Shown here piece by piece: positions 22,551 through 45,405 of a stretch of 64,000 nucleotides of DNA. Both the position numbers and the translations under genes were made by a program. A model generated the notes under the pieces. The model searched no databases. It saw only the letters and a list, made by a program, of their open reading frames with translations, and was not told the DNA's origin. Origin of the DNA: a virus; IMG/VR virus record IMGVR_UViG_3300030061_003170; one strand, 5' to 3'. The stretch's first letter is position 1, and each line of letters begins with the position of its first letter.

Positions 22551-22756
22551 TCATCTCCTGTAAGGATTGTCGGTGTCGCCTTGGCTTGAGGAACTTTCAC
22601 GGTTGGTGGATTAACGATTACAAGTTCCCCTGCATCATCTACCTGTACCTTGAATCCTCGAAGGACCGGTGTGATGTCCGATTGCTCCATAAGAGATTTT
22701 TGAAGGGCCATCATAATTGCTCCGACGGCTTGGTTTGATAATTTATGATCTTTCAT
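22547..22756 (-). CDS. Hypothetical protein
   Basis: Coupled ORF with GGAG RBS. Confidence 0.6.
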   Translation of the reverse strand: MKDHKLSNQAVGAIMMALQKSLMEQSDITPVLRGFKVQVDDAGELVIVNPPTVKVPQAKATPTILTGDE

Positions 22757-23357
22757 TTTTTTGCTCCTTAAAATTTAAAATAAAATCAATATCTTTCCTG
22801 TACATTTTTAAAACCATACGTGAAAGTTCTTTGTTGTTTCTTAGATACTGTGATATTGTGGATTTTGCAACACCAGAGTTTTTGTTATAATGACTAGAAT
22901 TAATAATAGAAAATTCATTCTCTAGAAGTAAATTGGTCTCTTCTATTTTATAGACCTTATCTATTACAATGTTATTGTCTAAGTCTGTCATATAAAACAT
23001 TTGTGGTTCAATATGTGCATCAAAAAAACCATAATCATGCACCTCTTCTATGAAAGAGTAAAATCTTTTTGGCTCACCATGTATCTTAAAAAATTTTTTT
23101 TTCCTAGTCTCTACGCCATCGCCAAGCGCTCTCTTGTTTATCTCAATATATGCACTGCAAAATCTTTCGAAAGGATCCCTAACAACACATATCGTTTTAT
23201 AGTTTTCTAATATTGTTGGGTCATCCAAAAAGTTTGAAACTCTATAGTCAGGGTTTAATCTTCTAATTGTTGTGCTGCTGTTTTTAGGTATAGGCACGAA
23301 ACATATGCCTTTGTCTTCATAAATATAAGAAAGACCCTTGGCATGGTTATAGGCCAT
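22743..23357 (-). CDS. Sulfotransferase (Sulfotransfer_2 type)
   Basis: PAPS-binding motifs FVPIPKNSSTT and VVRDPFERFCSAY; HIEPQ. Confidence 0.8.
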   Translation of the reverse strand: MAYNHAKGLSYIYEDKGICFVPIPKNSSTTIRRLNPDYRVSNFLDDPTILENYKTICVVRDPFERFCSAYIEINKRALGDGVETRKKKFFKIHGEPKRFYSFIEEVHDYGFFDAHIEPQMFYMTDLDNNIVIDKVYKIEETNLLLENEFSIINSSHYNKNSGVAKSTISQYLRNNKELSRMVLKMYRKDIDFILNFKEQKNERS

Positions 23358-24204
23358 TTTTTATCTCCTGTACATAGTCAAACAACTGACGTTTGGGTTG
23401 CCAATCTAATTCCTTTATCGACTCTGAGATGTCTGCTAGGGTATTTCTTGCCTCTCCTGGTCTCGCTGGTAGATGTTTCTTTTCGCCACCAAACATGTCT
23501 GCCAGTTCATTTATCGAATAGTTCCTTCCTGTCCCAAGATTATAAACTTTACATTCCCTGTCTTTTTTTGAAATAGCGATTAGGCCGGAACATATGTCAT
23601 AAACGTGTGTAAAGTCCCTTCTTTGCATGCCATCCCCGACTATTGTCAGGGGGCTTTTGTTCTTCATCTGTTCTTCAAAGATTGCCACGACAGGTGTGTA
23701 TTGTCCAATTCTAGGGTTTCTTGGTCCGTAAACATTAAAAAACCTTGCAATCCCACTCTTGATTCCATAAACTTTTGTGTACATTTTAATAGTTTCTTCC
23801 CCCTGCCATTTTGCAAAAGCATATGGGTTAAGATAAACCCCTCCATAAAACGAACTGGATCCTGCATAAACCACCATGCAGTTATTTTTTCTAGCGTATT
23901 CACAAACAACAGCAGTACCATAAGAATTGTTTTCACAAGTATATAAAGGATCATCAAAAGATGGCTGTATTCTTGCTTCTGCTGCGATATGAAAAATTAC
24001 CTCTACACCCTCAAGACCTATTGATGGGGTGGACAAATATTTCTTAAAATCATCAAATATATATTTTGCAGATGGGTTGCAATTTTCTTTTTTGCCATAA
24101 GATAAATCGTCAATGACAATTACTTCATATGATTGCTCTATCAAAAGATCTACCAAATTACTGCCGACAAAACCACAGCCACCTGTTACTATAACTTTCT
24201 TCAT
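23347..24204 (-). CDS. NAD-dependent nucleotide-sugar epimerase/dehydratase
   Basis: VTGGCGFVGSN, YAFAK (YxxxK), RFFNVYGP, QRRDFTHV. Confidence 0.9.
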   Translation of the reverse strand: MKKVIVTGGCGFVGSNLVDLLIEQSYEVIVIDDLSYGKKENCNPSAKYIFDDFKKYLSTPSIGLEGVEVIFHIAAEARIQPSFDDPLYTCENNSYGTAVVCEYARKNNCMVVYAGSSSFYGGVYLNPYAFAKWQGEETIKMYTKVYGIKSGIARFFNVYGPRNPRIGQYTPVVAIFEEQMKNKSPLTIVGDGMQRRDFTHVYDICSGLIAISKKDRECKVYNLGTGRNYSINELADMFGGEKKHLPARPGEARNTLADISESIKELDWQPKRQLFDYVQEIKNGL

Positions 24205-24220
24205 ACAAACCCCAAAACTA

Positions 24221-25198
24221 TTACAAATTATTCTCTTTTTTGATCTTTTCTAGATCTGCAAAATACATTGCCTCCGCTAGTCCTCGCAGTTCGTATTTAG
24301 GTTCCCAGCCCAACTCAAGTTTTGCTTTTGAAGGATCTCCTAGCAGTAATGGAACCTCATGTGGCCTAAATAACTTTGGATCTATTTCAACGTAGTCTTC
24401 AACTGATAAGTCGGCTATTTCAAAGACTTGATGCAGAAACTGTTTTACTGTATATGTTTTTCCCGTTGCCACAACATAATCACCTGGTGTATCTTTCTGT
24501 AGCATTAGCCACATTGCATTTACGTAATCTTCAGCATGACCCCAATCTCTTTTTGCATCTAGGTTTCCTAGGTATAACTTGTCTTGTAATCCTAGTTTTA
24601 TTCTTGCTGCTGCAATTGTTATCTTTCTGGTTACAAATGTTTCTCCTCTTCTAGGAGATTCATGGTTAAACAATATCCCACAAGAAATAAACATACCATA
24701 ACTTTTTCTGTAGTTATTACACAAATTGTGCGCAAATACTTTTGCACAAGCATATGGGCTGGCTGGCATTAGAGCAGTCTTTTCACTCTGTGGGTGTTCT
24801 GGGTTGTCACCAAACATTTCAGAAGATGATGCTTGATAAAATTTTATCGTTGGGTCAGTGTGCCTAATTGCCTCTAATATCCTCAAAGTTCCCATTGCAA
24901 TCGTAGCAACAGTTTCCTCTGGGGTCTCAAAGGAGACTTTCACGTGCGACTGGGCTGCTAGATTATAAAACTCATCAGGCTTATATTGCTGCAGTAATGA
25001 ATAGAGCACCCCGGAGTCATGAAGACTATAATATCTTAATATAAAATTCGGATTACTCATCAGATGATCAATTCTATCAGTACATATCAAAGAAGTTCTT
25101 CTCTTAAGGCCTACAACTCGATACCCCATTCCCAATAACATTTCGGACAAATAAGATCCATCCTGACCAGTAACTCCCGTTATAATTGCTGTCTTCAT
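24221..25198 (-). CDS. gmd: GDP-mannose 4,6-dehydratase
   Basis: ITGVTGQDGSYL, YNLAAQSHVKVSF, YQASSSEMFG, LFNHESPRRGETFVTRKI, RDWGHAEDY. Confidence 0.97.
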   Translation of the reverse strand: MKTAIITGVTGQDGSYLSEMLLGMGYRVVGLKRRTSLICTDRIDHLMSNPNFILRYYSLHDSGVLYSLLQQYKPDEFYNLAAQSHVKVSFETPEETVATIAMGTLRILEAIRHTDPTIKFYQASSSEMFGDNPEHPQSEKTALMPASPYACAKVFAHNLCNNYRKSYGMFISCGILFNHESPRRGETFVTRKITIAAARIKLGLQDKLYLGNLDAKRDWGHAEDYVNAMWLMLQKDTPGDYVVATGKTYTVKQFLHQVFEIADLSVEDYVEIDPKLFRPHEVPLLLGDPSKAKLELGWEPKYELRGLAEAMYFADLEKIKKENNL

Positions 25199-26355
25199 AC
25201 ACTCTCCCTAACTATATCAACCACCAGGTTGACCTCTTCCTCTGATAACTTATCATGGTTGGGTATATACAGGCCATTTTTGTCAACAACACTAGAGTTC
25301 TTTAAATTATTTTTCCCATAATTCTTGACATAAAAGGGCTGATTTCCCATAGAACCACAAATCAATGGTCGAACCTCTACATTATTTTTAATTAAATTTT
25401 CAACTATCTGAGTTCTGTTTTCATGAATTATAGGATATGCAAAGTTTGAAATATAATTTGTATCCTCAGAAATTATTGGAGATATATCACTAAACTTCTC
25501 ATTGTATATTTTGAAATTCCTGTTCCTGATTTTTGAGATCTGGTCTAGTTTGTCAATTTGGCCCAGGCCAATATAGGCTTGTAAATCAGTAGATCTTAAA
25601 TTAAACCCAGAATAATAAAAAGTATATAAAGAATCAAATTCGCTAGTGTTCCACTCTGTCAGATGGCGTTCTCGAAACGATTTACTCGAGTCTCTCGTCC
25701 AGCCGTGGCTCCTAATTGCCTTTAGGACTTCATATAACTCTTCATCATCTGTGCTGACAAAACCGCCTTCAATCGTAGAAATATGATGACCAAAGTAAGT
25801 GGAAAAACTAGACATCAGGCCAAAGGTGCCTAATTTCTTATCTCTAAACTTAGAACCCATGCTCTCGCAAGTGTCTTCTAGAAGAATTACGTTATTTTCA
25901 TCACATATATCCTTCAAAGATTGCATGTCGGGGACCAAGCCTAAGACTGAAACCAGTAACAAGACATGGGGTTGATCTTCTCTAATTATTTGCTTTAAAT
26001 GATCTATATCAACAGACAAGTCTTTCATGTTACAATCACAAATAATCGGCTCAAAGCCAAGTTGTATAACTGGTGATAAATCTGTCGCCCAGGAAATCGC
26101 TGGTACTATGATTTTTGCATTCCTAGGTATTCTACCGGCCTCATACAGTGCCCACAACATCAGTAAATTTGCTGAAGATCCTGAGTTACAAAAAACAGTA
26201 TTGTTAACTCCTAACCAATTAGACCACTTATTTTCCAACTGAATTGTTACTGGGCCTTTTGTAAGTCTTGGCGGGACATCGGTTGATAGCCACGCCACTA
26301 ATCTCTCTATATCTTCTTTTGAGATTGTGTCGTCAACTAGTGTAATTTTTTTCAT
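25195..26355 (-). CDS. colD: PLP-dependent DegT-family enzyme, probable GDP-4-keto-6-deoxymannose 3-dehydratase
   Basis: NSGSSANLL, LEDTCESMG, STYFGHHISTIEGG with His where aminotransferases have the Schiff-base Lys; flanked by gmd and fcl-like genes. Confidence 0.75.
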   Translation of the reverse strand: MKKITLVDDTISKEDIERLVAWLSTDVPPRLTKGPVTIQLENKWSNWLGVNNTVFCNSGSSANLLMLWALYEAGRIPRNAKIIVPAISWATDLSPVIQLGFEPIICDCNMKDLSVDIDHLKQIIREDQPHVLLLVSVLGLVPDMQSLKDICDENNVILLEDTCESMGSKFRDKKLGTFGLMSSFSTYFGHHISTIEGGFVSTDDEELYEVLKAIRSHGWTRDSSKSFRERHLTEWNTSEFDSLYTFYYSGFNLRSTDLQAYIGLGQIDKLDQISKIRNRNFKIYNEKFSDISPIISEDTNYISNFAYPIIHENRTQIVENLIKNNVEVRPLICGSMGNQPFYVKNYGKNNLKNSSVVDKNGLYIPNHDKLSEEEVNLVVDIVRESV

Positions 26356-26382
26356 TTAAACTCCAAAAAAAGACTTTTATAT

Positions 26383-26411
26383 ATTATAACCCGTTTTCAC
26401 AAGTTAGTCAA
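26383..26411 (-). promoter_or_regulatory. sigma70-type promoter TTGACT-N17-TATAAT
   Basis: Read directly; upstream of colD-gmd block. Confidence 0.75.
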
Positions 26412-27315
26412 GTGTTTTTATGTATGAATTGTAAGTTTTTTTAACCCCCTCGCTAAAACTTGTGAATTCAAAGTCTCCAATGAGTTTTTTTAACTGATCA
26501 TTGCTGCCGTCTTTTCTAAACTGACCGTCTAGCATACCATTGAATCTAAAATCAACCTCTTTGTCTATATTTTTCTCTAATATTCTACACATTTCAGATA
26601 TTGATAAATTTTCATTTGGGGCTACAATAATAGGGATTCTAGTGTTATGTTTTTCTAGCAGCATAGGTATTATTCTGCACAAATCATCAACATACAACTG
26701 TTGCCTTAAAGGTCTCCCAGTTCCCCAGAAGGTCAATGTCTCTCCTGTTTTGCAGACTGCTACTTTATGGATCAAAGAGGCTACAAAATGCGAGGACATT
26801 GTTCCAAAATAATCACCAATACCGTATATGTTGGATGGACTAAAAGTTGAATAATTTAAGCCATATTGCTCTCTATATGAAATTGACTGAACATGTAACG
26901 CTCTTTTCGTATATCCATATGAAAAGTTTGTTTCGGCGGGTGGGCCTAAAAACAAATCAGACTCAGAAAAAGGGTAAGACATACCTTCGTCTGGGAAGGC
27001 ACAGGTGCTAAGTGATGATAAAACTCTTTTCACGCCACATAAATGAGCCGCATGTAAAAGATTGGTGTTTATAACGGTATTTTCATAAAAAAATTCTGCC
27101 TGGTTTTCTTTATTGTCTTTTATTCCACCAACTCTAGCAGCCAAATGCACTATTGCATTAGGCTTGGTCTGTTCTAAATAATTAATTGTGGAATCTATAC
27201 TTAGTAGATTACAATCTTTTGAAGAACAATAGTTCCAATCTGGTCTGAAATGTTTTAAACGTTTGCCAACAAAACCAGAACCTCCAGTTACTAGAACACT
27301 ATTATACTTGCTCAT
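26404..27315 (-). CDS. fcl: GDP-L-fucose/GDP-L-colitose synthase (3,5-epimerase/4-reductase)
   Basis: VTGGSGFVG, HLAARVGGI, STCAFP, YGYTK, SHFVASLIHK, WGTGRPLRQ. Confidence 0.85.
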   Translation of the reverse strand: MSKYNSVLVTGGSGFVGKRLKHFRPDWNYCSSKDCNLLSIDSTINYLEQTKPNAIVHLAARVGGIKDNKENQAEFFYENTVINTNLLHAAHLCGVKRVLSSLSTCAFPDEGMSYPFSESDLFLGPPAETNFSYGYTKRALHVQSISYREQYGLNYSTFSPSNIYGIGDYFGTMSSHFVASLIHKVAVCKTGETLTFWGTGRPLRQQLYVDDLCRIIPMLLEKHNTRIPIIVAPNENLSISEMCRILEKNIDKEVDFRFNGMLDGQFRKDGSNDQLKKLIGDFEFTSFSEGVKKTYNSYIKTLD

Positions 27316-27893
27316 TTCGCCCTCAAAGGAGAATCTACCATTCTAATTTTTTCGTCTCTAATTGAAGGGCATCGATTACCAGTTCTATGGATCAGATCGT
27401 AAAAAATCATCATAATTGAGACCTCAACAGTATGAAAATACTTACATTTTATTGATAGTTCGTCAATGTTGTCTTGTAAGTTTTCAGAAGTTTCACCGCT
27501 AATTAGAAATGTTCCCATGCCACGATTATCTGCCCAGTGTAGGGCATTAATAACATTGGAAGAATTACCAGAGCAAGATAGGCCTATAACCAAGCAGTCT
27601 TCTGGGTTTTCGATTGTCGCTATGCTTTCCAACCATCTAATGAAAAGTTGCTCAAATCCATGGTCATTTGCATTTGAGGTAATGAACCCCACACTATCAA
27701 ACGAGTACACGGATTTATCTGGTATTAGCCTAGACATATCAGTTGACATATGACATGCCACAAAATGAAGACCACCATTTCCAACCAAGTAAATCTTCTT
27801 GGCTCCATTTACTTTATCAATTAATTTTTGATACTCTTCTGAAGAAGAAGCCTGGTTACACTTTTCTTGTATATTTTCAAAATCTATCAACAT
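27312..27893 (-). CDS. SIS-domain sugar-phosphate isomerase, GmhA-like
   Basis: YLVGNGG, ITSNANDHGF, GLSCSGNSSNVINAL; start at second Met (TAATG coupling). Confidence 0.8.
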   Translation of the reverse strand: MLIDFENIQEKCNQASSSEEYQKLIDKVNGAKKIYLVGNGGLHFVACHMSTDMSRLIPDKSVYSFDSVGFITSNANDHGFEQLFIRWLESIATIENPEDCLVIGLSCSGNSSNVINALHWADNRGMGTFLISGETSENLQDNIDELSIKCKYFHTVEVSIMMIFYDLIHRTGNRCPSIRDEKIRMVDSPLRAK

Positions 27894-29065
27894 TATAAAC
27901 CTCCACATGTTTTGTTAATAATAGATATAAATTGTTCTATTTCATCGTAAGAAATTGCCAAATTTGGTCTCAACCTAACCGATTTTTCACCAGTCTTGTT
28001 GCAAATCAATCCATTTTGATACAATTTGCTTACCAATTCATCCCTTTCCTTTGTGTTTACTAAATCAAACGCCATAATTAGCCCGGACGATCTCAAGTTT
28101 AAAAGTCTCTTTGTCTTGTTTAAGTTATTGATTAAGTATTCACTCTTTTCAGCAACCTTTTCAATGATTTCATATTTTTTGTATGCCCTCATTATATATT
28201 TGCATCTTATCATGTCTACCGCATCACCGTCCCAAGTTACTTGTAACCTAGTGATGTTACTTTTGTCAAATATTTTATTACATTTATCGTTTACCATAAT
28301 GCCAGATAATTGTGTTTTTTTGCCAAAAATTACAATGTCAGGGACTATACCAGTGTGCTCATAAAACCAAAGTTTACCGGTGCTACCGAAACCTACTTGT
28401 ATTTCATCAAACACTAAAGGAACATCGTATTTATCACAAAGGCGCCTCAATCCTGTAAAGAAAATAATGTCTTGATGTATATCTCCTGCGCTACACTGTA
28501 TTGGTTCTACTAAAACACAAGTTACAAAATTTTTATGCAAATAAGACTCAATCTCTCTCAAATCACAATTTAGTTTTGTTGAAAAAGTTTCTGGGAGACC
28601 GTCTAATTTATTACTGGCAGGCCAGAAATGATCAGTCACAAAAGAACCAAAACTGTTTATCCCATGAAAACTATTTCTAAAAGATACTATGTTTGGCTTT
28701 TTATAGCCAGATCGATGTATGCAAGTCTTTATTGCGGCTTCAACTGCCAATGCACCCGTACAAGTATAGTGATAGTTATCGTAAATACCATTACCTGTAA
28801 ACTGTCTAAACTCTTTATCGAAACCTAAAGTTTCATTAGAAACAAACTCGCAATTATTTATCTTAAATGTAGAGGCTGCTAAAATCTCATCCCTGAATTC
28901 TTCAGAAAGAAAAATATCATGGTTATAACCTAGTGGAAGAGATGCATACATTCCAAAAAAATCTAAATATCTTCTCTCCGTATTATTGTCATAAAGATAA
29001 GACCCTTTTGATTTAGAGAAGTTAACGTTAATATTGAATTTACTGTTTCTGGCTAAACTTATCAT
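27893..29065 (-). CDS. Class III PLP aminotransferase (lysine-6-aminotransferase-like)
   Basis: YLDFF..ASLPLGYNH, TGALAVEAAIK, SFHG, VEPIQ, FDEIQVGFG, FGKKTQ. Confidence 0.85.
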   Translation of the reverse strand: MISLARNSKFNINVNFSKSKGSYLYDNNTERRYLDFFGMYASLPLGYNHDIFLSEEFRDEILAASTFKINNCEFVSNETLGFDKEFRQFTGNGIYDNYHYTCTGALAVEAAIKTCIHRSGYKKPNIVSFRNSFHGINSFGSFVTDHFWPASNKLDGLPETFSTKLNCDLREIESYLHKNFVTCVLVEPIQCSAGDIHQDIIFFTGLRRLCDKYDVPLVFDEIQVGFGSTGKLWFYEHTGIVPDIVIFGKKTQLSGIMVNDKCNKIFDKSNITRLQVTWDGDAVDMIRCKYIMRAYKKYEIIEKVAEKSEYLINNLNKTKRLLNLRSSGLIMAFDLVNTKERDELVSKLYQNGLICNKTGEKSVRLRPNLAISYDEIEQFISIINKTCGGL

Positions 29066-30117
29066 ACTCTATCCCCAATAAAATATTCTAATATTAGATT
29101 TTGCAATTCGCTCTTGTTTTGCACTTGATGAACGAATAGATCTCCAAAATCAGATGCCAATATACAAACAATTGTTTTTTCTATATTTTTCTTATCCTTC
29201 GACAAATACTCCATGTATTCATCAATCTCATCTTTTGTTATCAAAAACTCTGGTATATTTTTAAACAGGATTTGATTCATAAATTTATATCTCTCAAAAG
29301 ATAAAAAACCTAGTTTCCAAGAAACATAGTTGGCCAAATCCATCCCTAGAGTCACTGCTTGGCCATGAGGGATGCTGTAGTTGCTAAGAGTCTCAATTGC
29401 ATGACCAAAAGTGTGGCCATAATTAAAGACCCTCCTTAGGTTCGTATCAAACTCATCTATTTCAATTAATTTTTTCTTTATTGACAGACTTTCTCTAACA
29501 TACGGCATCAAAGAAGATCGGTCTGTGAAAAGACTTTCGTATTCTTCTTTGATTTTTAACGCCATAGAGTTGCCATCATAAATGTAGTAATGAAGCATCT
29601 CTCCAATGCCTGATTTAATCTCAGAGTCACTTAGTGTTTTCAGGAACTTTGTGCAGCAAATAATTTCTCTTGGTGGATAAAAAGTCCCGATAGAATTCTT
29701 GACATTTAAAAAGTTAATTGATGTCTTGCTTCCTATGCAACTGTCCGATTGAGATAACAATGTGGTGGGGTAAAAGACCCACTCTATACCTCTATACAAG
29801 ACAGATGAAATAAATCCTGTTATGTCCTGTATAATTCCTCCGCCAACGGCGATTAGTTTATGGTTTTTCTTCACACCCTTGTTAATTAAAAGACCAATTA
29901 AGTCTTGACAAAAAGGCAATGATTTATTGTCCTCTGTGGCTTCTATAATGATGACTTTTTCTGTCTTGAAGCCTGATGTGAGATGCGGGTACAACTCGTT
30001 AACAGTAGAATCAATTAGAACATAAGAGTCATCTGCCCATCGGTTTAAATTTACTTCTGAGTCGTAAAAATTAACTTCGTATTCTCTTCTATATGAGGAA
30101 ATTTTCATATTATACAT
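29062..30117 (-). CDS. Sugar-phosphate cyclase, 3-dehydroquinate synthase-like
   Basis: AVGGGIIQD, YRGI, PTTLLSQSDSCIGSK, KNSIGTFYPP, NYGHTFGHAIE, HGQAV, DKK. Confidence 0.88.
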   Translation of the reverse strand: MYNMKISSYRREYEVNFYDSEVNLNRWADDSYVLIDSTVNELYPHLTSGFKTEKVIIIEATEDNKSLPFCQDLIGLLINKGVKKNHKLIAVGGGIIQDITGFISSVLYRGIEWVFYPTTLLSQSDSCIGSKTSINFLNVKNSIGTFYPPREIICCTKFLKTLSDSEIKSGIGEMLHYYIYDGNSMALKIKEEYESLFTDRSSLMPYVRESLSIKKKLIEIDEFDTNLRRVFNYGHTFGHAIETLSNYSIPHGQAVTLGMDLANYVSWKLGFLSFERYKFMNQILFKNIPEFLITKDEIDEYMEYLSKDKKNIEKTIVCILASDFGDLFVHQVQNKSELQNLILEYFIGDRV

Positions 30118-30835
30118 TTGTAAATCCCCCGTCCACTACGATGTTTTGCCCAGAAATATAATTATTTTGATTACTAGCCATAAACATAACCACTTTTGAA
30201 ATATCACTTGGTGTTGCCATCCGGCCAATTGGTATGGTTTTTGCAATTTTAACCATCTCTGTTTCACCCAGAACTTCTCTTGTTAGATCAGTTAATGTAA
30301 AGCCAGGAGACACCGTGTTAACAAGGACATCATATTTTGCCAACTCTGCGGCTGCTGAAAGCGATAGGCCTACAAGGCCAAATTTACTAGAGGAATATGA
30401 TGCTCTATATTCCTTGCTTATTGTACCCCAAATAGATGAAATGTTTACTATTCTTCCATAGTTATGTCTCTTCATTGTATTTGAGATTGTTTTTATTATT
30501 CTGAATGGTGTTGTCAAATTTACTTTAATTATGGCATCCCAGTCTTCTTGTTGTACATCACCAATTGATGCAATCTTATTGATACCTGCATTGTTAATAC
30601 ACACATCAATCTTTTTATTTGAGAGGAAACTAATAAAGTTATCTACTGATTGTGAATCTAAAAAATCAACAGGGTATTTTTCAAAACCATCATTTAGTTG
30701 ATTTAAAGAAAGATCACTGGTGCCTGTTGCTATAATGTTTGCACCAGCGTGAAACATATCCTCGGCAATTTGCCTACCTATTCCTCTGGTGGCCCCTGTT
30801 ACCAAGACTGTCTGATTTTTAAAATCAATTTTCAT
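30110..30835 (-). CDS. Short-chain dehydrogenase/reductase (FabG-like)
   Basis: VTGATRGIG, NNAG, YSSSK, VSPG, IVVDGG. Confidence 0.9.
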   Translation of the reverse strand: MKIDFKNQTVLVTGATRGIGRQIAEDMFHAGANIIATGTSDLSLNQLNDGFEKYPVDFLDSQSVDNFISFLSNKKIDVCINNAGINKIASIGDVQQEDWDAIIKVNLTTPFRIIKTISNTMKRHNYGRIVNISSIWGTISKEYRASYSSSKFGLVGLSLSAAAELAKYDVLVNTVSPGFTLTDLTREVLGETEMVKIAKTIPIGRMATPSDISKVVMFMASNQNNYISGQNIVVDGGFTNV

Positions 30836-31968
30836 TATGAACTGTCTCCATCTGGGTAGACATGAGCAACATCTTCTCTACTAACTGCTAATCTAATCGC
30901 CGGCTTGTTACCTACCGCCTGAATTCTATGTGGGATACCTTTTCCAATAAAAACTATGTCATCTTTTTTAATTTTCTTAATAACACCGTCAATCTCCCAC
31001 TCCCACTCGCCATCAATAATATACCACCATTCATTCCAACTGGGGTGGTAGTGTCGTCGATTACCCTCACCGGGTTGTTGATGAATAATTGTTGCACTGT
31101 TGTTCTCGGTATTTACTACTCGGTGGCTCCAACTCTTGGAGTCATCATTCGCGGCCCGAATAGAATTGATGTTTACAATCTCTTTATTACATTCATGCAA
31201 GTTATTGTACATAACGCCGTCTTTTGCTAGGATAGAGGGGACATCAACCTCAGAATGTTCGGCTCCATAGAATTGTGGCTTGAACGAGTCGTTCTTAGAT
31301 AGATGTCTAGAAACAACTTCTGCCAGTTGGAAATCTTCTTCATTGTCTATATCAATGGTTGAATACCCCTTGAGTTCAAAAAAGCCTTTCTTGCCTAGCC
31401 CACCGTGGTAAGCGGCAGAGTACTCATTCATGTTGGAAACATAATTTTCAGATCTCCAGCCCATTAAAGAACAAGCGTAAGGATGAACTGGTGTTACTTC
31501 TTGCGAAGGAGGGCTTATCTTTGTGGGATCAAAATTAATCGGATCATTATTATAAACACATTCTATTTGCTGACTTGATACGGATATTAGTGTATCAAGT
31601 TTGTTGTCAACAATTTCATTAACAAAACACCTTATCTCCTCAGGGGTGATGAAAGGAGAAGTGGGTAAAATTTGAATTACTATGTCGCATGCTACGTTTT
31701 CTAAAAACTCAAGCATAAATTCATCATTGGTGGCTGCATCAGAAGCCATGTAGGGTGATCTCTTAAAAAATTTTACACCTGATATCTCAGCGATCTCTTT
31801 AAGAATTTCTGATTCTGAGTTTACATAAATGGCATCAAAACAACCAGAATCTTTGGCAGCATCTATAACATACTGTATCAAAGGCTTGTTGTTCAGTAAT
31901 CTTATGTTTTTCTTAGGCACTCTTTTACTACCTAATCTTGCGGGGATCATTGCTACAATATTATTCAT
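30835..31968 (-). CDS. Acylneuraminate-cytidylyltransferase (NeuA-like) fused to C-terminal cupin
   Basis: MIPARLGSKRVPKKNIR, PTSPF, IDIDNEEDF; cupin HYHPSWNEWWYIIDGE...PHRI. Confidence 0.85.
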   Translation of the reverse strand: MNNIVAMIPARLGSKRVPKKNIRLLNNKPLIQYVIDAAKDSGCFDAIYVNSESEILKEIAEISGVKFFKRSPYMASDAATNDEFMLEFLENVACDIVIQILPTSPFITPEEIRCFVNEIVDNKLDTLISVSSQQIECVYNNDPINFDPTKISPPSQEVTPVHPYACSLMGWRSENYVSNMNEYSAAYHGGLGKKGFFELKGYSTIDIDNEEDFQLAEVVSRHLSKNDSFKPQFYGAEHSEVDVPSILAKDGVMYNNLHECNKEIVNINSIRAANDDSKSWSHRVVNTENNSATIIHQQPGEGNRRHYHPSWNEWWYIIDGEWEWEIDGVIKKIKKDDIVFIGKGIPHRIQAVGNKPAIRLAVSREDVAHVYPDGDSS

Positions 31969-32798
31969 TTTTCTTCCAAGTTAAAGTTTTTAATCAAATA
32001 ATCATCGACCTTCAGTTTTTTTGAGTAATGATGATCAAGCATTTTTCTAAAATATTCTATTTGAGGACCTTGCTGGTGGATGTCAATTCTAAGATCAGAC
32101 TTAGATGGCATCTTATTAGAGGTGCTTGTGAAATTATTATTTTTGGCCGCCTCATCATGATACGTATCATTATATATTTTACCAAAATTGTTCATATTAA
32201 AAAACGACATTCCTGTGACATATAAACTTTCAATATCATAATTTAGCAATGTTATGATTCCTGTCAAGCCTGTGTTACACGTTGTCCCGACTTGCTCAAA
32301 TATCTTGAAGAGATAACCATCACAAACATTGTGGGTTGGTATTTCTAGTTTACTTAAGAATTGATTAACTGCTGGTAGCGTTTGTACGTTAACCATGGAG
32401 CATATTAGGTATTTTAGAGAATTTGCAAATTCCATGTTTGCACCTAAAGCACGTCTTTTGTGAATGTTTAAACAGTTTATTAAAATATCTGTTCTTTTGC
32501 CATAATCTTGCCAGTCATTTTCACGCATATGATACGCCTGGTTGACTCTAATTACCAAGTCATGGGAATCTATATACTCACCCATGTTTAAGCCCCTCAG
32601 GTGAGGAGAAGGGCACACGTAGGCAATTCTTTTGCCTTTCAATAAGTGTGCTAAATTCTCGTCCCTGTTGTACTCTTTAAAATCACCAACGAATCTTCCG
32701 GACCGTCCTAGTCTCTCTAGTTGTTGTGAAGGTGTTAAGGTAGAGGATTGCCATCTTGGAGGATCTACAAATGGTATATTGATTATTTTACCCATCAA
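31965..32798 (-). CDS. GT29 (sialyltransferase)-like glycosyltransferase
   Basis: Sialylmotif-L-like RIAYVCPSPHLRGLNMGEYIDSHDLVIRVN...DYGKRTD; S-like CNTG; late His. Confidence 0.6.
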   Translation of the reverse strand: MMGKIINIPFVDPPRWQSSTLTPSQQLERLGRSGRFVGDFKEYNRDENLAHLLKGKRIAYVCPSPHLRGLNMGEYIDSHDLVIRVNQAYHMRENDWQDYGKRTDILINCLNIHKRRALGANMEFANSLKYLICSMVNVQTLPAVNQFLSKLEIPTHNVCDGYLFKIFEQVGTTCNTGLTGIITLLNYDIESLYVTGMSFFNMNNFGKIYNDTYHDEAAKNNNFTSTSNKMPSKSDLRIDIHQQGPQIEYFRKMLDHHYSKKLKVDDYLIKNFNLEEK

Positions 32799-33633
32799 GG
32801 GCCTCCTTTAGTATATTTTCATACATCCAGTTCTCAACAACATCATATTTTTTGCATTCTTCTAGATTGTGCAATATTGCTTCTTGTTCTAGTCTCGTGT
32901 CTTCGATTCCATTGATAATATTGTATAACTCATCAGCAGTCTCAAAGGTTATAATTCCTCGTGGATCAAAAAACTCTTCTATGTTTGGACAGCCCCAATA
33001 AATTGGAATCGTACCAACGGCAAAACAATCCAATAATTTTTCTGTAAAATAGTTGTCTTTCCTGACGTTTTCTATGACAATCGAATATTTGTAATCTGTT
33101 AAGGCCTCTTCTTTTTTCTCAATAAACTTATCCGCCCCAGTTCCAAACAAATCAACTTTGCCCTTTAGCACAGAAGCCACTTGGTGCCTTAGATTCCAAC
33201 CTTGTAAGCCACCAATTTTATTTGAATAAACCATTGAAATACCCTTTGTCTTGTCAAATATTTTATAGTTGCTTTCCTCAACCCATGTACCGCCAAATGG
33301 AACAAATTTGCATTTTTCTGGGTATTTCTGCAATAGTGATGTATCATTTGTGAGTAAAACATCAAGTAAATCAATGTATTTGTCCACTAACACGTATGCA
33401 TGCTGGTGAACTTCACGCCGCTCTATCATCCAACCAATCTTTATATTGCTCTTAACTGACTTAATGTACACTGGGTTTAAGAAATTATCAGTGAAAATAG
33501 TTACACCATCAAAATTAGTTTTTCTATATAAATACCTGAAATGGTTATTGGACTTGTCTTTAATCATAGAAAAATTGCCAGATTTAGTCCTAAGATGCTC
33601 AAAGGTGCTGTCCCAAAGGTTAACTTCATACAT
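32788..33633 (-). CDS. GT10-like (alpha-1,3-fucosyltransferase-type) glycosyltransferase
   Basis: YKYSIVIEN...YFTEKLLDCFAVGTIPIYWG. Confidence 0.8.
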   Translation of the reverse strand: MYEVNLWDSTFEHLRTKSGNFSMIKDKSNNHFRYLYRKTNFDGVTIFTDNFLNPVYIKSVKSNIKIGWMIERREVHQHAYVLVDKYIDLLDVLLTNDTSLLQKYPEKCKFVPFGGTWVEESNYKIFDKTKGISMVYSNKIGGLQGWNLRHQVASVLKGKVDLFGTGADKFIEKKEEALTDYKYSIVIENVRKDNYFTEKLLDCFAVGTIPIYWGCPNIEEFFDPRGIITFETADELYNIINGIEDTRLEQEAILHNLEECKKYDVVENWMYENILKEALDG

Positions 33634-34411
33634 TAATGATCTCCCATTCGTTTGGTATTATATCCTCAGTTTTAAAATTGCTATTTTTTGGACCAAACCA
33701 AGTTCCAGGAGCAATTACTCTTTTGTTTTCATTTTCATTTAACCATGCCGCCCACCAGGAAAAAGAAGAGTTAGCAATGATGTTGTTTTTCATTTTACTC
33801 ATAAGAAAAAAATCAATTACATCAAAACCTGTGTTGACAAATGTCGCATCCAAATAACTAAACCTTTCCTTGCACCACTCTATATCATCACTAAAGAAGA
33901 CATAATGTGTGTTTTCAAAAGCAGAGAAGCACTTACTGTAGTAGTCCTCTCCAAGGTTGGTGTGGTATTCTTTGTATTTAAGGTAGTCTCCTCTCCTAAT
34001 GTGGACTGCGCAAGTATTCTTCTCCAGAAGGCTGGAGAAATTTCTAGAAATAAAGTTGTTAATTTTATCAGGGATCGCAAACATATCTTTAATTTCTGCT
34101 TTTCGGTGAACAAAGTACTTTTCACTTTGATAATATCCGTCTAAACAAATGTTTGAAGTGTAGTTTATTTTTTCATAAGAAAAGTCTGGTGATCCGTGAT
34201 GTACAGTAAGTCCTGTCTTTGGAAAAGATTCAAATTTTATATCTTCAAATATTGTCATTCGGTACTTTGTAGTTTCTGAATTGGTTGGTGAAATACCAGA
34301 AGTGTAACTACTACAAACAAAATCAGCATTATTGTCTAAAGATAATGCTTTTGCTGCTGCCATTTGGAACATCTGGTTGCACATTCTTCCTTTTAAAGAC
34401 ACATAAATCAT
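33626..34411 (-). CDS. GT11 alpha-1,2-fucosyl/colitosyltransferase
   Basis: GRMCNQMFQ, GYYQSEKYF, AVHIRRGDY, FSDD, IIANSSFSWWAAWL. Confidence 0.9.
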   Translation of the reverse strand: MIYVSLKGRMCNQMFQMAAAKALSLDNNADFVCSSYTSGISPTNSETTKYRMTIFEDIKFESFPKTGLTVHHGSPDFSYEKINYTSNICLDGYYQSEKYFVHRKAEIKDMFAIPDKINNFISRNFSSLLEKNTCAVHIRRGDYLKYKEYHTNLGEDYYSKCFSAFENTHYVFFSDDIEWCKERFSYLDATFVNTGFDVIDFFLMSKMKNNIIANSSFSWWAAWLNENENKRVIAPGTWFGPKNSNFKTEDIIPNEWEIINV

Positions 34412-35157
34412 AATGAATCAACTTTACTGTATTTCTTTCTATTCCTAATCATTCTTTCTTCGCCTAATTGGACAGAGTGGTTAATTTTATCTTCATTTAG
34501 GGGATTAGTTCTGTTATAAACATACATAATGTCTTTCACATATACGGCTTTTTCACCGGACATCTCTAACATTGGAAACATAAATGCCAAGTCCCAAGCA
34601 GCCTTCACAAACCTTCCAGTCTCGTCATTGATTAAGTCTTTTTTGTTTATTTTTCTCCATAAACCACACTTAAATGTTCTCAAGTGCGATGAACACCATG
34701 GACTTTCTCGATAAGCGTTTGAATAAATTATTGACTTCGGAATCTGTCTGCTAAACTGTCCTTTTACATTACTAGGGTGTTCAACATAGGAACCATAAGT
34801 CATCCAGCAACCACTCTCATTATAGACTTCATTAATCTTTGAAAGCACATGTCTGCTGGCTAACCAATCATCGCCATCCAAAGTCAATATTATATCTTGA
34901 TCGTCAGGGTTTAATTCCTGTATCGTGTCATGTATATTTTTTAAGGCATATGATTTTTCTGTATTTGTAACCAATTTAAATCTATCGTCACCAGCAATTG
35001 CTGCCTTAATAACTTCTGATGTTTTATCGGTTGATATGTCATCCACCAAAATACACTCATAGTTGTCATAATTTTGTAACTGTACAGACTTGATTGTTTT
35101 TGCGATCCAATCTTCTACATTATACAGAGGTATAATTACTTTAAAATGATTATCCAT
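34408..35157 (-). CDS. GT2 glycosyltransferase
   Basis: VIIPLYN, VDDISTD, LDGDDW. Confidence 0.9.
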   Translation of the reverse strand: MDNHFKVIIPLYNVEDWIAKTIKSVQLQNYDNYECILVDDISTDKTSEVIKAAIAGDDRFKLVTNTEKSYALKNIHDTIQELNPDDQDIILTLDGDDWLASRHVLSKINEVYNESGCWMTYGSYVEHPSNVKGQFSRQIPKSIIYSNAYRESPWCSSHLRTFKCGLWRKINKKDLINDETGRFVKAAWDLAFMFPMLEMSGEKAVYVKDIMYVYNRTNPLNEDKINHSVQLGEERMIRNRKKYSKVDSL

Positions 35158-35986
35158 TCAATATCTCCAAAACTCTATTAGGTATCTCTACCCTTTTGCC
35201 TCTCATGTGCTCTATCAGTTCACAACCACTTAACTTAAACCATGGCTCATAGGAAGCACCAACGTTCTTGTTTGTGATCGTTTTTATACCCATCATTCTT
35301 GCTTCAACAACAACCCTAGATAAAGTCTCAGGAGATTTTGGTAAAAATATGAATTTATTATTATTACTCATCAATGACAAGAACTCATTATAGTTTTTTG
35401 ACGAGATTAATTCGTACTCATACCCTTTCTTTTCGCAATAAAAACATGTTTCTGATGTGTTTTTGTGCCAAGTACCAGAATTTAGAATAGAATATCTATT
35501 GTTTTTTTCTTTTTTTGACAATATTTCCAGAATTGATAGTGAGTCTTCTGACCATAAGTTTCCTGAGAGGTTATGGACATTATTTATTGATAAATTCTTC
35601 TCTATTATGCTCTTATGAAAAGAAGATTGGCAAAAGACTGCCATGGCGTTTTGATAAAATTTAGCATTTACTATTTGACTTTTTGGTGCTATAAAATCTT
35701 TAAATTTAGCAGGGTTTCTGTTTCTTAAGTATTTGTGATCATGCTCGTAAATCACATAATCAAAATTATCTGCTAGCAGATCTCTTGTCCCAACGGGTAA
35801 GTTAACAAAGTTTGAGACTATTATTTTATGCCCCATATATTTTTTCAATACCTCTGTTGTTACCTCGTGAGATTTAAGTTTATTAACGAGCAATAGCGAA
35901 CATAACTCATAATCGTTAAGTTCGCCACCGCCAATTAAATCAGATAAAAAGAAGTCTGATATGTATAAAATATTATTCTTGCTCAA
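35150..35986 (-). CDS. Glycosyltransferase-like protein (GT-B)
   Basis: GGGELND, PETLSRVVVEARMMG acceptor/donor motifs. Confidence 0.65.
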   Translation of the reverse strand: MSKNNILYISDFFLSDLIGGGELNDYELCSLLLVNKLKSHEVTTEVLKKYMGHKIIVSNFVNLPVGTRDLLADNFDYVIYEHDHKYLRNRNPAKFKDFIAPKSQIVNAKFYQNAMAVFCQSSFHKSIIEKNLSINNVHNLSGNLWSEDSLSILEILSKKEKNNRYSILNSGTWHKNTSETCFYCEKKGYEYELISSKNYNEFLSLMSNNNKFIFLPKSPETLSRVVVEARMMGIKTITNKNVGASYEPWFKLSGCELIEHMRGKRVEIPNRVLEILNG

Positions 35987-44901: not shown

Positions 44902-45405
44902 TTATCTCCTAATAAATTTTTTCCAAGCATCTGGCATCTCAAGATGATGATAAAAATCAAGAATTGAGAACCTTGGCTCTGATGGTTCCTTTAATAACGT
45001 CATAGAAGCCTCATATGGCGTTTTACAGCCCTTCTTTTGATTACAGCATACACAAGCCGTCACAAGGTTTTCCCAGCCTCCTAGGCCCCCTCTTGACTTC
45101 GGAATGACATGATCCAAAGTTAACTGCGAATGTTTAAATTTGTCACCACAATATTGACAAACGTATTTATCTCTCCAATAAATGTTTCTTCTTGTGGCTG
45201 AGGCTCTAACTGTCTTCTTTCTGATATATGATTTGAGTACTATAACCGATGGAAAGTTATAATCAACACAAGGTCCTTGCTGATGTTCTTCTATCGCTTG
45301 CGCACGACCACCATAAACCATCGAAAACCCTCTTTCAGCAGTAATGACCTCTAGTGGCTGCCATGCAGCATCCAGTTTTAAGGTCATAAGTTTAGCCAAA
45401 ATCAA
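44902..45405 (-). CDS. HNH endonuclease (McrA-like)
   Basis: RDKYVCQYCG, TLDHVIPKSRGG, WENLVTACVCCNQKK. Confidence 0.92.
   Translation of the reverse strand: MILAKLMTLKLDAAWQPLEVITAERGFSMVYGGRAQAIEEHQQGPCVDYNFPSVIVLKSYIRKKTVRASATRRNIYWRDKYVCQYCGDKFKHSQLTLDHVIPKSRGGLGGWENLVTACVCCNQKKGCKTPYEASMTLLKEPSEPRFSILDFYHHLEMPDAWKKFIRR

Follow-up and report, generated by a model that had tools for sequence, protein, structure and literature searches.

A conserved six-gene cassette of a marine T4-like phage most likely makes and attaches a new sialic-acid-like sugar

A lineage of marine T4-like phages keeps six coupled genes together, and the cassette that they form most likely makes and attaches a new sialic-acid-like sugar. 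New here is the finding that a putative HAD-like phosphatase and an AroB-like enzyme with its reductase are mutually exclusive alternatives in phage cassettes of this kind.

The cassette lies in a window of 64,000 nt, the whole stretch of DNA that was analysed, from IMG/VR virus record IMGVR_UViG_3300030061_003170. The window encodes gp6-like and gp25-like baseplate proteins and PhoH, and its source is an uncultured marine T4-like phage. Six ORFs, all on the minus strand, span positions 27312-32798 exactly, and their domains were called with Pfam and NCBIfam as follows.

27312..27908, minus strand: SIS-domain phosphosugar isomerase, GmhA-like (198 aa)
27893..29065, minus strand: class-III (omega-type) PLP aminotransferase (390 aa)
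29062..30117, minus strand: AroB-related NAD/Zn enzyme of the TIGR04425 family (351 aa)
30110..30835, minus strand: classical SDR ketoreductase, FabG-like (241 aa)
30835..31968, minus strand: CTP_transf_3 and Cupin_2 fusion protein (377 aa)
31294..31968, minus strand: N-terminal cytidylyltransferase domain of the fusion, NeuA/PseF-like (Pfam CTP_transf_3)
30838..31131, minus strand: C-terminal cupin domain of the fusion with a metal-binding motif (Pfam Cupin_2)
31965..32798, minus strand: GT29-like (sialyltransferase-fold) glycosyltransferase (277 aa), for which the ATG at 32795 is the more likely start, rather than the TTG at 32798

Every adjacent pair overlaps by 1-16 nt and the six genes are therefore translationally coupled, in agreement with a preliminary description of this DNA. 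The run of genes extends downstream to a fucose-synthase-like gene and upstream to GT10, GT11, GT2 and GT4 genes.

Comparison of gene neighbourhoods revealed that the block is conserved. Of the 80 viral loci fetched, 23, on 22 distinct contigs of uncultured viruses, hold the complete set of six genes in a stretch of 5.4-8.8 kb, in four different orders that all retain the SIS gene within the cassette; with this recurrence the block is far from a chance arrangement. A gp6-like baseplate protein 43-47% identical to that of the window was present in four of five related contigs. The cytidylyltransferase was encoded in 55 of 63 loci containing the SIS gene versus 21 of 97 loci without it, and in bacterial loci its gene often directly follows the AroB-like gene (L143, L151, L087, L091 and L108). 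Phmmer labels place an SDR gene beside the AroB-like one in 148 of 160 loci, and clustering does so in 142. A phage variant with the order cytidylyltransferase-DegT-AroB-like-SIS has no SDR (L018, L029, L035, L037, L038 and L046). A third cassette type combines the SDR and AroB-like pair with thiamine-diphosphate enzymes, FGGY kinases and NeuB; it has no SIS gene and almost never a cytidylyltransferase (4/65). Most of these cassettes are accompanied by a GT29-fold gene or an MptE-like gene of PF01973, the family of the Maf flagellin transferases.

The absence of NeuB, KdsA and other shikimate genes from the window, noted in the preliminary description, was confirmed. No NeuB, KdsA/DAHP-synthase, HpcH aldolase or other shikimate gene was detected by Pfam in all long ORFs not nested inside annotated genes, which together cover the window, or by tblastn of the window with family seeds; nor were these genes found in five related viral contigs (454 kb in total, 33-71% complete). 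PF00793 was found neither in the long ORFs of the window nor in the five contigs. PF03102, the NeuB family, was likewise not found in the window or these contigs and was near just 18 of 160 homologous loci, mostly of the third cassette type, while the KdsA model TIGR01362 was not found in four of the five cassette-bearing bacterial bins, which are incomplete. Some relatives carry an HpcH-type aldolase or NeuB. No publication was found describing this cassette or a matching phage pathway. Thus, with no ulosonate synthase and no described counterpart found, the proposal of an undescribed CMP-activated sugar pathway operating without NeuB or KdsA is supported.

The AroB-like protein scored 426.8 bits over residues 6-346 against TIGR04425, above the curated cut-off of 400, and is therefore a member of this family, which is named AroB-related putative sugar phosphate phospholyase, cyclizing, and carries no assigned biochemical function. 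The score against the housekeeping AroB model (TIGR01357) was 273.3 bits, under the equivalog cut-off of 305. Five cassette-bearing bacterial genomes contain both a cassette copy (238-266 bits) and a canonical aroB (340-393 bits), and the family forms a clade separate from housekeeping AroB with 99% SH-like support. Thirteen DHQS positions (R130, D146, K152, N162, E194, K197, K250, R264, N268, H271, H275, H287 and K356, A. nidulans numbering) were checked in approximately 155 homologues and in annotated AroB, sedoheptulose-7-P cyclase and DOIS (2-deoxy-scyllo-inosose synthase) references, the latter being three annotated cyclases and one annotated DOIS from plasmid records. Twelve of the 13 residues are identical in the window enzyme, the sole change being His at the Lys197 position, and all three metal ligands are conserved. 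This pattern is compatible with DHQS-type chemistry, whether on DAHP or on another substrate. The positions homologous to Lys250 and Arg264, the residues that bind the DAHP carboxylate, match true AroB. At the positions of Lys250, Arg264, Asn268, His275 and Lys356 the annotated sedoheptulose-7-P cyclases carry Met, Lys/Ala/Ser, Asp, Pro and Val/Trp, respectively, and DOIS departs from the AroB pattern at three positions, whereas the window enzyme and all cassette homologues have the AroB residues at these five positions. Compared with AroB (EC 4.2.3.4; PDB 5HVN, 3CLH, 1XAG and 1DQS), the enzyme shares the fold and Pfam domains but is only ~30% identical and typically has an SDR as its partner in glycan loci, where no shikimate genes adjoin it. 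These comparisons establish a separate paralogue family that is predicted to retain a complete DHQS catalytic set, and the AroB-type fingerprint implies that the substrate should bear a carboxylate and a phosphate, like DAHP.

The SIS protein matched Pfam SIS_2 (E = 2.5e-5) and its closest PDB entries are phosphoheptose isomerases (1e-11), although it scored only ~61 bits against the NCBIfam GmhA models, for which the cut-offs are 209-265. The SxSGxS phosphate loop and the His61 equivalent are retained; of the catalytic Glu65/His180 pair, Glu65 has become Asp, and the C-terminal part around His180 is divergent. The aminotransferase (Aminotran_3, E = 1e-62) was best matched in NCBIfam by L-lysine 6-transaminase (LAT; TIGR03251), but with 256.8 bits against a cut-off of 520.8. 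It retains the PLP lysine and the equivalent of Arg422 of the Glu/2-oxoglutarate site, while the lysine-binding Arg170 of LAT is replaced by Ile and the Glu243 switch by Ser. Its gene is nearly confined to the cassette's phage form, 27 of the 29 fetched loci that have it being viral. The SDR matched adh_short_C2 (E = 1e-49) and adh_short (E = 1e-44), and its closest PDB entries are FabG (4e-45).

For the CMP-transferase and the sialyltransferase-like protein named in the preliminary description, Pfam and the Foldseek matches of the model folds are in agreement. The cytidylyltransferase domain matched CTP_transf_3 (PF02348) with E = 5e-24 and 85.6 bits, the cut-off being 22.6; it fell short of the named equivalogs, scoring 94.7 bits against 205.7 for PseF and far under the cut-offs of all KdsB models. 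The best Foldseek matches of its AlphaFold model were CMP-Kdn, CMP-Neu5Ac and CMP-Pse synthetases (E = 4e-17 to 1e-13; TM ~0.74 on target), followed by KdsB. The PF02348 domain and the modelled NeuA/KdsB fold place it in the predicted CMP-ulosonic acid synthetase family. No characterised PF02348 cytidylyltransferase is known to act on anything but a 2-keto acid sugar. The cupin domain (Cupin_2, E = 2.8e-14) has His306, His308 and Glu313 invariant and His347 nearly so in 24 homologues, corresponding to the 3-His-1-Glu cupin metal site, and is a separate ORF in some phages (L012, L015 and L019). The GT29-like protein gave a weak match to Glyco_transf_29 (PF00777) of 28.7 bits against a cut-off of 23, in the sialylmotif-L region only. 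Its model (pLDDT 93) had GT29 chains as the first ~30 Foldseek matches, all with probability 1.00 and TM 0.45-0.54, led by ST6Gal1, ST3Gal1, ST8Sia3 and ST6GalNAc2, with GT42 Cst-I/II thereafter. GT29 was present in all 30 ESM Atlas neighbour clusters, which are mostly from phage. The model thus confirms a predicted GT29 sialyltransferase fold for the putative glycosyltransferase.

Evidence on the role of the AroB-like enzyme came from sister cassettes. The cytidylyltransferase-cupin and the aminotransferase occur together in 48 distinct phage cassettes, of which 28 contain the AroB-like gene, 11 a HAD-like ORF, nine neither and none both (Fisher p = 7e-6), and the reductase is present in nearly all of the 28. 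In L221, L195, L182 and L209 the cytidylyltransferase and aminotransferase genes flank the HAD-like ORF. L221 is collinear with the window type and has the HAD-like ORF exactly at the position of the reductase and AroB-like genes; its GT29, cytidylyltransferase-cupin, aminotransferase and SIS proteins are 56-63% identical to those of the window, equally close as those of cassettes bearing the AroB-like gene. The HAD-like cassettes mostly keep the same isomerase, and the GT29-like gene is also common to the collinear L221. Domain mapping shows a fusion of the HAD-like domain with SIS in L178, L184 and L207, and in L217 and L224 the SIS and HAD-like labels fall on one ORF. The small ORF has the motifs DFDGV, Ser/Thr, KP and IDDK, matches phrog_1238 at 1e-13 to 1e-16 and gave weak NCBIfam matches to three HAD phosphatase models; two source names read 'HAD superfamily' and 'predicted phosphatase'. 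Pfam and a search of PDB profiles gave no match, and hhalign gave E = 0.066. The ORF is accordingly termed a putative HAD-like phosphatase, on its motifs and weak profile matches. The swap in the sister cassettes thus suggests that the AroB-like enzyme serves the pathway by removing a phosphate rather than by building a ring.

It is about an even chance that the AroB-like enzyme and the SDR strip the terminal phosphate from a keto-acid sugar, yielding a deoxy ulosonic acid that is then aminated, CMP-activated and transferred by the GT29-like enzyme. We infer the substrate, chain length and order of steps. The overall logic would be that of the Kdo and sialic-acid routes, namely isomerisation, formation of a keto-acid sugar phosphate, dephosphorylation, CMP activation and transfer. 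The SIS enzyme would supply an aldose phosphate, which an enzyme outside the cassette, most likely a KdsA- or DAHP-synthase-type enzyme of the host, would condense to a phosphorylated 2-keto sugar acid. The AroB-like enzyme would then release the phosphate at the end of the chain, not by hydrolysis but in a sequence of NAD-dependent oxidation, beta-elimination and re-reduction, and the SDR would reduce the remaining ketone to give a terminally deoxygenated ulosonic acid of 7-9 carbons. The class-III aminotransferase, possibly helped by the metal-cupin domain, would install the amino group, the NeuA-like domain would make the CMP-sugar, and the GT29-fold enzyme would cap a glycan built by the adjacent GT10, GT11, GT2 and GT4 enzymes. 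The start of this pathway is a guess since no enzyme that builds the carbon skeleton is encoded in the cassette.

The cassette resembles the CMP-Kdo pathway (KdsD, KdsA, the HAD phosphatase KdsC and KdsB) in the SIS isomerase, phosphate removal, the PF02348 cytidylyltransferase and the probable phosphorylated 2-keto sugar-acid intermediate, and sister cassettes have a HAD-like phosphatase, sometimes fused to SIS. It differs in that KdsA is lacking, the SIS protein is GmhA-like and not KdsD-like, the AroB-like enzyme and SDR replace the phosphatase, there are an additional aminotransferase and cupin, the cytidylyltransferase has NeuA/PseF rather than KdsB as its closer relatives, and the transferase has the GT29 fold and not that of Kdo transferases. 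Features in common with the sialic and nonulosonic acid pathways (NeuB/NeuA; GT29/GT42) are the NeuA-like CMP-transferase, the sialyltransferase fold of the transferring enzyme and the amination of an acidic sugar, and the product is probably terminally deoxygenated like legionaminic and pseudaminic acids. Unlike those pathways, the cassette has neither a NeuB-type synthase nor dedicated UDP/GDP-HexNAc precursor enzymes, and deoxygenation would act on a keto-acid phosphate through a DHQS-like lyase rather than on a nucleotide-hexose through a 4,6-dehydratase. The Kdo8N route of Shewanella, as described by Gattis et al. in 2013, reportedly employs the iron-alcohol-dehydrogenase-type oxidase KdnB and the aminotransferase KdnA, which is not of class III. 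In that route the free ulosonic acid is likewise oxidised and then aminated before CMP activation, although the partners in the cassette are a cupin and a LAT-like class-III enzyme.

Several features argue against a deoxy ulosonic acid. The apparently fully conserved DHQS pocket argues for a DAHP-sized substrate; a seven-carbon DAHP-like substrate and established DHQS chemistry would give a carbocycle, and Bartlett and Knowles are said to have found that the intermediate cyclises spontaneously after elimination. Furthermore, the SDR and the aminotransferase each need a carbonyl and only one is accounted for. Alternatively, the AroB-like enzyme could take DAHP or a closely similar compound through the complete dehydroquinate-synthase reaction, leading to a CMP-activated carba-analogue of a 3-deoxy-ulosonic acid; the ring ketone would be either reduced by the SDR, giving a quinate-like acid, or aminated by the aminotransferase, and CMP would be placed on the tertiary hydroxyl beside the carboxylate. 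Retention of 12 of the 13 catalytic and binding residues favours, by parsimony, the same chemistry, and almost any host could provide DAHP, which would make a synthase gene unnecessary. A quinate-type C1 with its hydroxyl and carboxyl groups may also mimic the anomeric centre activated by NeuA/KdsB enzymes, and the SDR-less phage variant recalls the cyclase and DegT aminotransferase pair of 2-deoxystreptamine biosynthesis. The CMP-linked species without an alpha-keto acid reported in Magnetospirillum (SugarBase preprint, 10.64898/2026.04.20.719630) are a lead only. However, a saturated ring has no ring oxygen to stabilise a sialyltransferase-type transition state, yet most cassettes include the GT29-fold or MptE-like gene; the phosphosugar isomerase would have no role with DAHP as substrate; and the 56-63% identity of the downstream enzymes in phosphatase-bearing sisters is easier to reconcile with a minor structural change than with a missing ring oxygen. 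A carbocyclic product is therefore rated less likely than the deoxy ulosonic acid and, taken by itself, is unlikely. If it were made, the phage and many bacteria with a related cassette would produce a CMP-activated, quinate-like compound that mimics a 3-deoxy-ulosonic acid and that would either enter glycans by chemistry without precedent or serve as a non-transferable decoy of CMP-Kdo or CMP-sialic acid.

The preliminary description had proposed that a heptose or sedoheptulose phosphate from the GmhA-like isomerase is cyclised by an EEVS/DDGS/DOIS-type enzyme to a C7 cyclitol, then reduced, aminated, CMP-activated and transferred. The SIS protein is indeed nearest to GmhA, and cyclase, aminotransferase and reductase follow the standard logic of aminocyclitol systems (EEVS/ValA, DDGS, and DOIS/BtrC with BtrS), which share the superfamily fold. 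Nevertheless, phylogeny and fingerprint identified an AroB-type active site in a TIGR04425 clade outside housekeeping AroB, with no match to the sedoheptulose-7-P cyclases or DOIS, and the heptose-to-aminocyclitol chemistry is therefore not supported. The AroB-like sequence is also nearer to true DHQS (1e-46) than to DOIS (1e-30), ValA (1e-23) or DDGS (1e-20), neither CMP activation nor a sialyltransferase-fold enzyme belongs to the aminocyclitol pathways, and a C7 cyclitol derived from sedoheptulose-7-P lacks the carboxylate of the known PF02348 substrates. This route is consequently very improbable. Scarcely better is the prospect that two unrelated modules are neighbours, the cytidylyltransferase and GT29-like enzyme using a host Kdo or nonulosonic acid while the SIS, aminotransferase, AroB-like and SDR enzymes make another product, such as dehydroquinate or quinate in an auxiliary metabolic role. 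With no ulosonate synthase encoded, a host-made acid must enter somewhere, and the SDR and AroB-like pair recurs in the third cassette type, where SIS is absent and the cytidylyltransferase rare. Against this, the six genes stay linked across four rearranged orders, SIS and cytidylyltransferase occur together, the bacterial cytidylyltransferase gene often immediately follows the AroB-like gene, the phosphatase swap falls inside the block between cytidylyltransferase and aminotransferase, and no other shikimate gene was found in the window.

Overall, a terminally deoxygenated, aminated ulosonic acid is the preferred product. On this best reading, a relative of AroB together with a reductase would stand in for the simple phosphatase of sister phages.

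The ORF calls placed exactly six minus-strand ORFs at 27312-32798, with neighbouring ends overlapping by 1-16 nt. Searches with Pfam and NCBIfam identified the products listed below, in agreement with the six-gene block of the preliminary description.

SIS-domain protein, minus strand, 198 aa; nearest to GmhA (Pfam, NCBIfam)
Class-III aminotransferase, minus strand, 390 aa; nearest to lysine 6-transaminase
Dehydroquinate synthase (DHQS)-fold protein, AroB-like, minus strand, 351 aa (Pfam, NCBIfam)
SDR, FabG-like, minus strand, 241 aa (Pfam)
CTP_transf_3 cytidylyltransferase fused to Cupin_2, minus strand, 377 aa (Pfam)
31965-32798, minus strand, GT29-like protein, 277 aa; weak Glyco_transf_29 match

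The TTG start listed for the GT29-like gene is probably wrong and the true start is probably the next codon, ATG at 32795, the point from which the homologues align and at which the ESM Atlas record also begins. The block lies in a co-directional glycan island (22743-38476) encoding a sulfotransferase (22743-23357, at the island end near gmd), an epimerase, Gmd, a DegT/RfbH-like protein and a fucose-synthase-like reductase, followed by GT10, GT11, GT2, an unknown gene and two GT4 transferases. The gmd gene, in the minus-strand segment 24221-27315, is bona fide (435 bits, over its cut-off) and its neighbours there encode the DegT-family protein, for which the best NCBIfam model was the 3-dehydrase RfbH, and the fucose-synthase-like reductase; together the three look like a GDP-3,6-dideoxyhexose (colitose-type) pathway. 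A eukaryote-type phosphomannomutase is encoded at 46250-47071, near the gmd group. The frequency of promoter-like and terminator-like sites in the 21-39.5 kb region was not above that of shuffles, and the only site there resembling an operon promoter was at 38528-38500, ahead of the first GT4 gene.

The predicted gene content identifies the window as phage, since it encodes gp6-like and gp25-like baseplate proteins, PIN-PhoH, a PD-(D/E)XK nuclease and two structural proteins of ∼2,200 aa. The latter (1859-8467 and 12165-18701, minus strand) flank the gp6/gp25 baseplate genes; Pfam matched one of them at three Laminin_G_3 (concanavalin-like) stretches and gave nothing for the other. Both are candidates for fibres or for proteins attached to the baseplate, and may be glycan acceptors. 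The PIN-domain and PhoH fusion (40054-41397, minus strand) and a free-standing HNH endonuclease (44902-45405, minus strand) are close to the island.

Pfam searches of the long, non-nested ORFs of the window and tblastn with family seeds detected no NeuB, KdsA/DAHP synthase, HpcH aldolase, thiamine-diphosphate enzyme, FGGY kinase or other shikimate gene, which upholds the earlier observation that the window contains neither an ulosonate synthase nor further shikimate genes. NeuB, PF00793 (KdsA/DAHP synthase) and HpcH were absent from the window and from 454 kb of five related contigs (33-71% complete).

Conservation of the block was evaluated with an alignment of AroB-like homologues as the query, which returned 80 viral and 80 genome loci; a scan of viral contigs with the single protein returned no match. 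The SDR gene adjoins the AroB-like gene in 148 of the 160 loci by phmmer labels, or 142 by clustering. Twenty-three viral loci on 22 distinct contigs contain the full six-gene set in a span of 5.4-8.8 kb, with four gene orders among them, so that the gene-neighbourhood search proposed in the preliminary description showed the block to be conserved. A gp6-like protein is encoded by four of five six-gene contigs and is 43-47% identical to that of the window, results indicating a diverged phage lineage that keeps the cassette rather than one recent transfer. A DNA-level search of deposited phage genomes gave no match to the cassette, and a protein search of the deposited phage collection with the AroB-like enzyme returned only host aroB at ∼30% identity and no cultured phage with the family. 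The family is common: a scan covering a single genome for each prokaryote species gave at least 600 matching stretches, and dozens of contigs from marine phages carry it.

Clustering of neighbouring ORFs and annotation of representatives revealed three cassette types. Type A, that of the window (29 loci, 27 viral), contains the aminotransferase, cytidylyltransferase (usually cupin-fused), SIS, SDR and AroB-like genes, usually with a GT29-like and/or MptE-like (PF01973) gene; neither NeuB nor HpcH was found in any of the 29 loci. Type B, mostly bacterial, combines SIS, a Gfo/Idh/MocA oxidoreductase, a D-2-hydroxyacid dehydrogenase, SDR, the AroB-like enzyme and a short cytidylyltransferase; some loci add an HpcH aldolase and another cytidylyltransferase. 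Type C (L048-L063 and L119-L160, for example L049, L127 and L138) contains one or two acetolactate-synthase-like thiamine-diphosphate enzymes with SDR and the AroB-like enzyme, often an FGGY kinase and NeuB, and also DegT and nucleotide-sugar dehydratase genes; SIS is absent and a cytidylyltransferase almost never present. Type C is represented in viral contigs as well as in Firmicutes (Butyrivibrio, Lachnospiraceae), Chloroflexi and archaea. A cytidylyltransferase is encoded in 55 of 63 loci with SIS versus 21 of 97 without it; thus, the two go together. Minimal phage loci encode only SIS, SDR, the AroB-like enzyme and a cytidylyltransferase (L022; with a cupin in L021, L023 and L025), which looks like the core. 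A phage variant without SDR has the order cytidylyltransferase, DegT aminotransferase, AroB-like and SIS (L018, L029, L035, L037, L038, L046), where the aminotransferase may take a ketone directly. Among the genome contigs fetched, the phage-type aminotransferase cassette occurred in just two records listed as cellular, L082 and L106. L082, in a bin labelled Thaumarchaeota, has a phage-type cassette with five of the six genes and probably represents a phage contig binned in error; L106, a SAR86 single-cell assembly, could be a clue to a host or to an infecting phage. When 401 Pseudomonadota genomes were searched with the cytidylyltransferase of a bacterial cassette (E≤1e-30), nothing beyond the query was returned.

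The AroB-like enzyme passed NCBIfam TIGR04425 (426.8 bits, cut-off 400) and failed the aroB equivalog (273.3 bits, cut-off 305). Five bacterial genomes with the cassette each also encode a canonical aroB scoring 340-393 bits against 238-266 for the cassette copy, and in a FastTree phylogeny of 149 sequences six housekeeping AroBs split from all cassette enzymes with 99% local support. The active site was compared at thirteen positions equivalent to those of A. nidulans DHQS in about 155 homologues; twelve of these positions are invariant and identical to AroB. The remaining position, Lys197, is occupied by His in the window enzyme, as it is in 28-29 of about 30 enzymes of type A. This His was considered as a marker of an amino substrate and ruled out as such on finding it also in aminotransferase-free bacterial cassettes; it extends to some type B enzymes and is a clade marker. 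The references were three plasmid genes annotated as sedoheptulose-7-P cyclase, which depart from AroB at the Lys250, Arg264, Asn268, His275 and Lys356 positions, and one annotated as 2-deoxy-scyllo-inosose synthase, which departs at Arg264, Asn268 and Lys356. The window enzyme has the AroB residue at every position where these references differ. In the DHQS-carbaphosphonate structure the DAHP carboxylate is held by Lys250 and Arg264 and the phosphate by Lys152, Asn162, Asn268, His275, Lys356 and Arg130. Since the residues at the carboxylate and phosphate positions are of the AroB type, the expected substrate is a 2-keto (or 2-hydroxy) acid sugar bearing a phosphate, rather than sedoheptulose-7-P or glucose-6-P. 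The fingerprint had been suggested in the preliminary description, which favoured cyclisation of a heptose or heptulose phosphate to an aminocyclitol that is then CMP-activated; across the thirteen positions the enzyme is neither of the sedoheptulose-7-P cyclase nor of the 2-deoxy-scyllo-inosose synthase type, a result that removes the heptulose chemistry and leaves a cyclitol product very improbable.

In order to identify cassettes independently of the AroB-like gene, viral contigs were searched with an alignment of the cytidylyltransferase-cupin. Among 48 distinct cassettes with this gene and the aminotransferase, 28 carry the AroB-like gene, 11 instead carry an ORF of 126-134 aa and nine carry neither; none carries both (Fisher p = 7e-6). 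In L221, L195, L182 and L209, phage loci of the second kind, the small ORF lies between the cytidylyltransferase and aminotransferase genes, where the window has SDR and the AroB-like gene. Apart from the small ORF (10130-10510), L221 is collinear with the window type, and its proteins show identities to those of the window of 61% (GT29), 56% (cytidylyltransferase-cupin), 57% (aminotransferase) and 63% (SIS), as high as in cassettes carrying the AroB-like gene. The small protein contains the four HAD motifs in order (DFDGV, Ser/Thr after a hydrophobic strand, KP and IDDK) and matched phrog_1238 (1e-13 to 1e-16), the label of which, phosphoheptose isomerase, we take to be a mislabel. Matches to three NCBIfam HAD phosphatase models were weak, as was that to E. 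coli GmhB by hhalign (E = 0.066); Pfam and PDB profile searches gave no match, and two of about 950 relatives carry HAD phosphatase as source name. The small protein is a probable phosphatase. The small HAD-like domain is also fused to the C-terminus of SIS in three mapped ORFs, with SIS at residues 1-183 and the HAD-like domain at 198-320.

L178, 16063-17040, SIS-HAD fusion
L184, 17746-18735, SIS-HAD fusion
L207, 17700-18665, SIS-HAD fusion

Both labels fall on one ORF in L217 and L224 as well. The sister phage cassettes with the fusion have, in addition, genes for an HpcH-type aldolase and for another cytidylyltransferase. The fusion, a Rosetta-stone link, ties the isomerase to a predicted phosphatase step, and the swap suggests that the AroB-like enzyme and SDR together convert a phosphorylated intermediate to a phosphate-free one, with a product accepted by nearly the same downstream enzymes in both kinds of cassette.

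The SIS protein retains the GmhA phosphate loop and the His61 equivalent and should therefore act on a phosphosugar ahead of phosphate loss. The aminotransferase retains the PLP lysine and the glutamate/2-oxoglutarate arginine and lacks Arg170 and Glu243 of lysine aminotransferase. Synthetases of CMP-Kdn, CMP-Neu5Ac and CMP-Pse matched the cytidylyltransferase domain ahead of KdsB. The cupin, encoded by its own ORF in some phages, has a 3-His-1-Glu metal site, invariant or near-invariant, and is predicted to be an enzyme in its own right. The model of the GT29-like protein (pLDDT 93) gave GT29 sialyltransferases as the first ∼30 Foldseek matches, followed by GT42 Cst-I/II, and 30 of 30 neighbour clusters in the ESM Atlas were GT29-bearing, those listed being mostly phage.

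We give about even weight to the proposal that the block makes, activates and transfers a deoxy-ulosonate. DHQS catalyses NAD-dependent oxidation beside the carbon bearing CH2-O-phosphate, beta-elimination of the phosphate and re-reduction, and the resulting methyl ketone or enol, in DAHP, attacks C2 to close the ring. The AroB-like enzyme would act as a phosphate lyase and the SDR would reduce the newly formed ketone, yielding an ulosonic acid deoxygenated at its terminus. A 9-deoxy position is likewise found in legionaminic and pseudaminic acids, although in the cassette the deoxy position would come by a different route. Amination and then CMP activation would follow, and the GT29-fold enzyme would add the sugar to a glycan built by the neighbouring transferases. 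The carbon skeleton would have to come from outside the cassette; our guess is that a KdsA- or DAHP-synthase-type enzyme of the host uses the SIS product. Four of five type B bacterial bins gave no TIGR01362 (KdsA) match, and in type B cassettes SIS, Gfo/Idh/MocA and the 2-hydroxyacid dehydrogenase could give a 2-keto-aldonate phosphate from a ketose phosphate without an aldolase.

A carbocyclic product, in which a DAHP-sized substrate yields a quinate-like carba-sugar acid, is the more parsimonious outcome for a perfectly conserved pocket that suggests such a substrate, for which established chemistry gives a ring, and the cyclase and DegT variant without SDR also fits it. However, sialyltransferase-type transfer needs a ring oxygen and these transferase genes travel with the cassette, and the isomerase would have no role; we consider this product unlikely. 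That the block joins two unrelated modules is less probable still.

Mass spectrometry of nucleotide sugars in Magnetospirillum gryphiswaldense detected unknown CMP-linked sugars, among them higher-carbon ulosonic acids and low-mass species without an alpha-keto acid (preprint 10.64898/2026.04.20.719630). The low-mass CMP species of this SugarBase preprint (203 and 217) were considered as the cassette product; masses calculated for N-acetylated seven-carbon residues do not fit and no link is claimed. The pair of SDR and AroB-like genes is present in L104, a Magnetospirillum bin.

The literature yielded no description of the cassette and no function assigned to TIGR04425; the present analysis adds a cyclase fingerprint built on annotated references and, in phages, the phosphatase swap together with the SIS fusion. 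To our knowledge, the phosphate, where present, is removed by a hydrolase in every characterised route to a CMP-acidic sugar (Kdo, sialic, legionaminic, pseudaminic). Deoxy positions in these routes are made earlier, on nucleotide-hexoses. If the deoxy-ulosonate proposal is correct, elimination of phosphate from a keto-acid sugar by a DHQS paralogue would constitute a novel enzymatic step, give a shikimate-type enzyme a new role and imply that a family of sialic-acid-like sugars has yet to be described. The replacement of lyase and reductase by a phosphatase would provide a natural pair of pathways for comparison in vitro. Since the AroB-like family is common, the sugars could occur widely on the bacterial and phage-modified surfaces of the sea, and would there influence recognition by phages.
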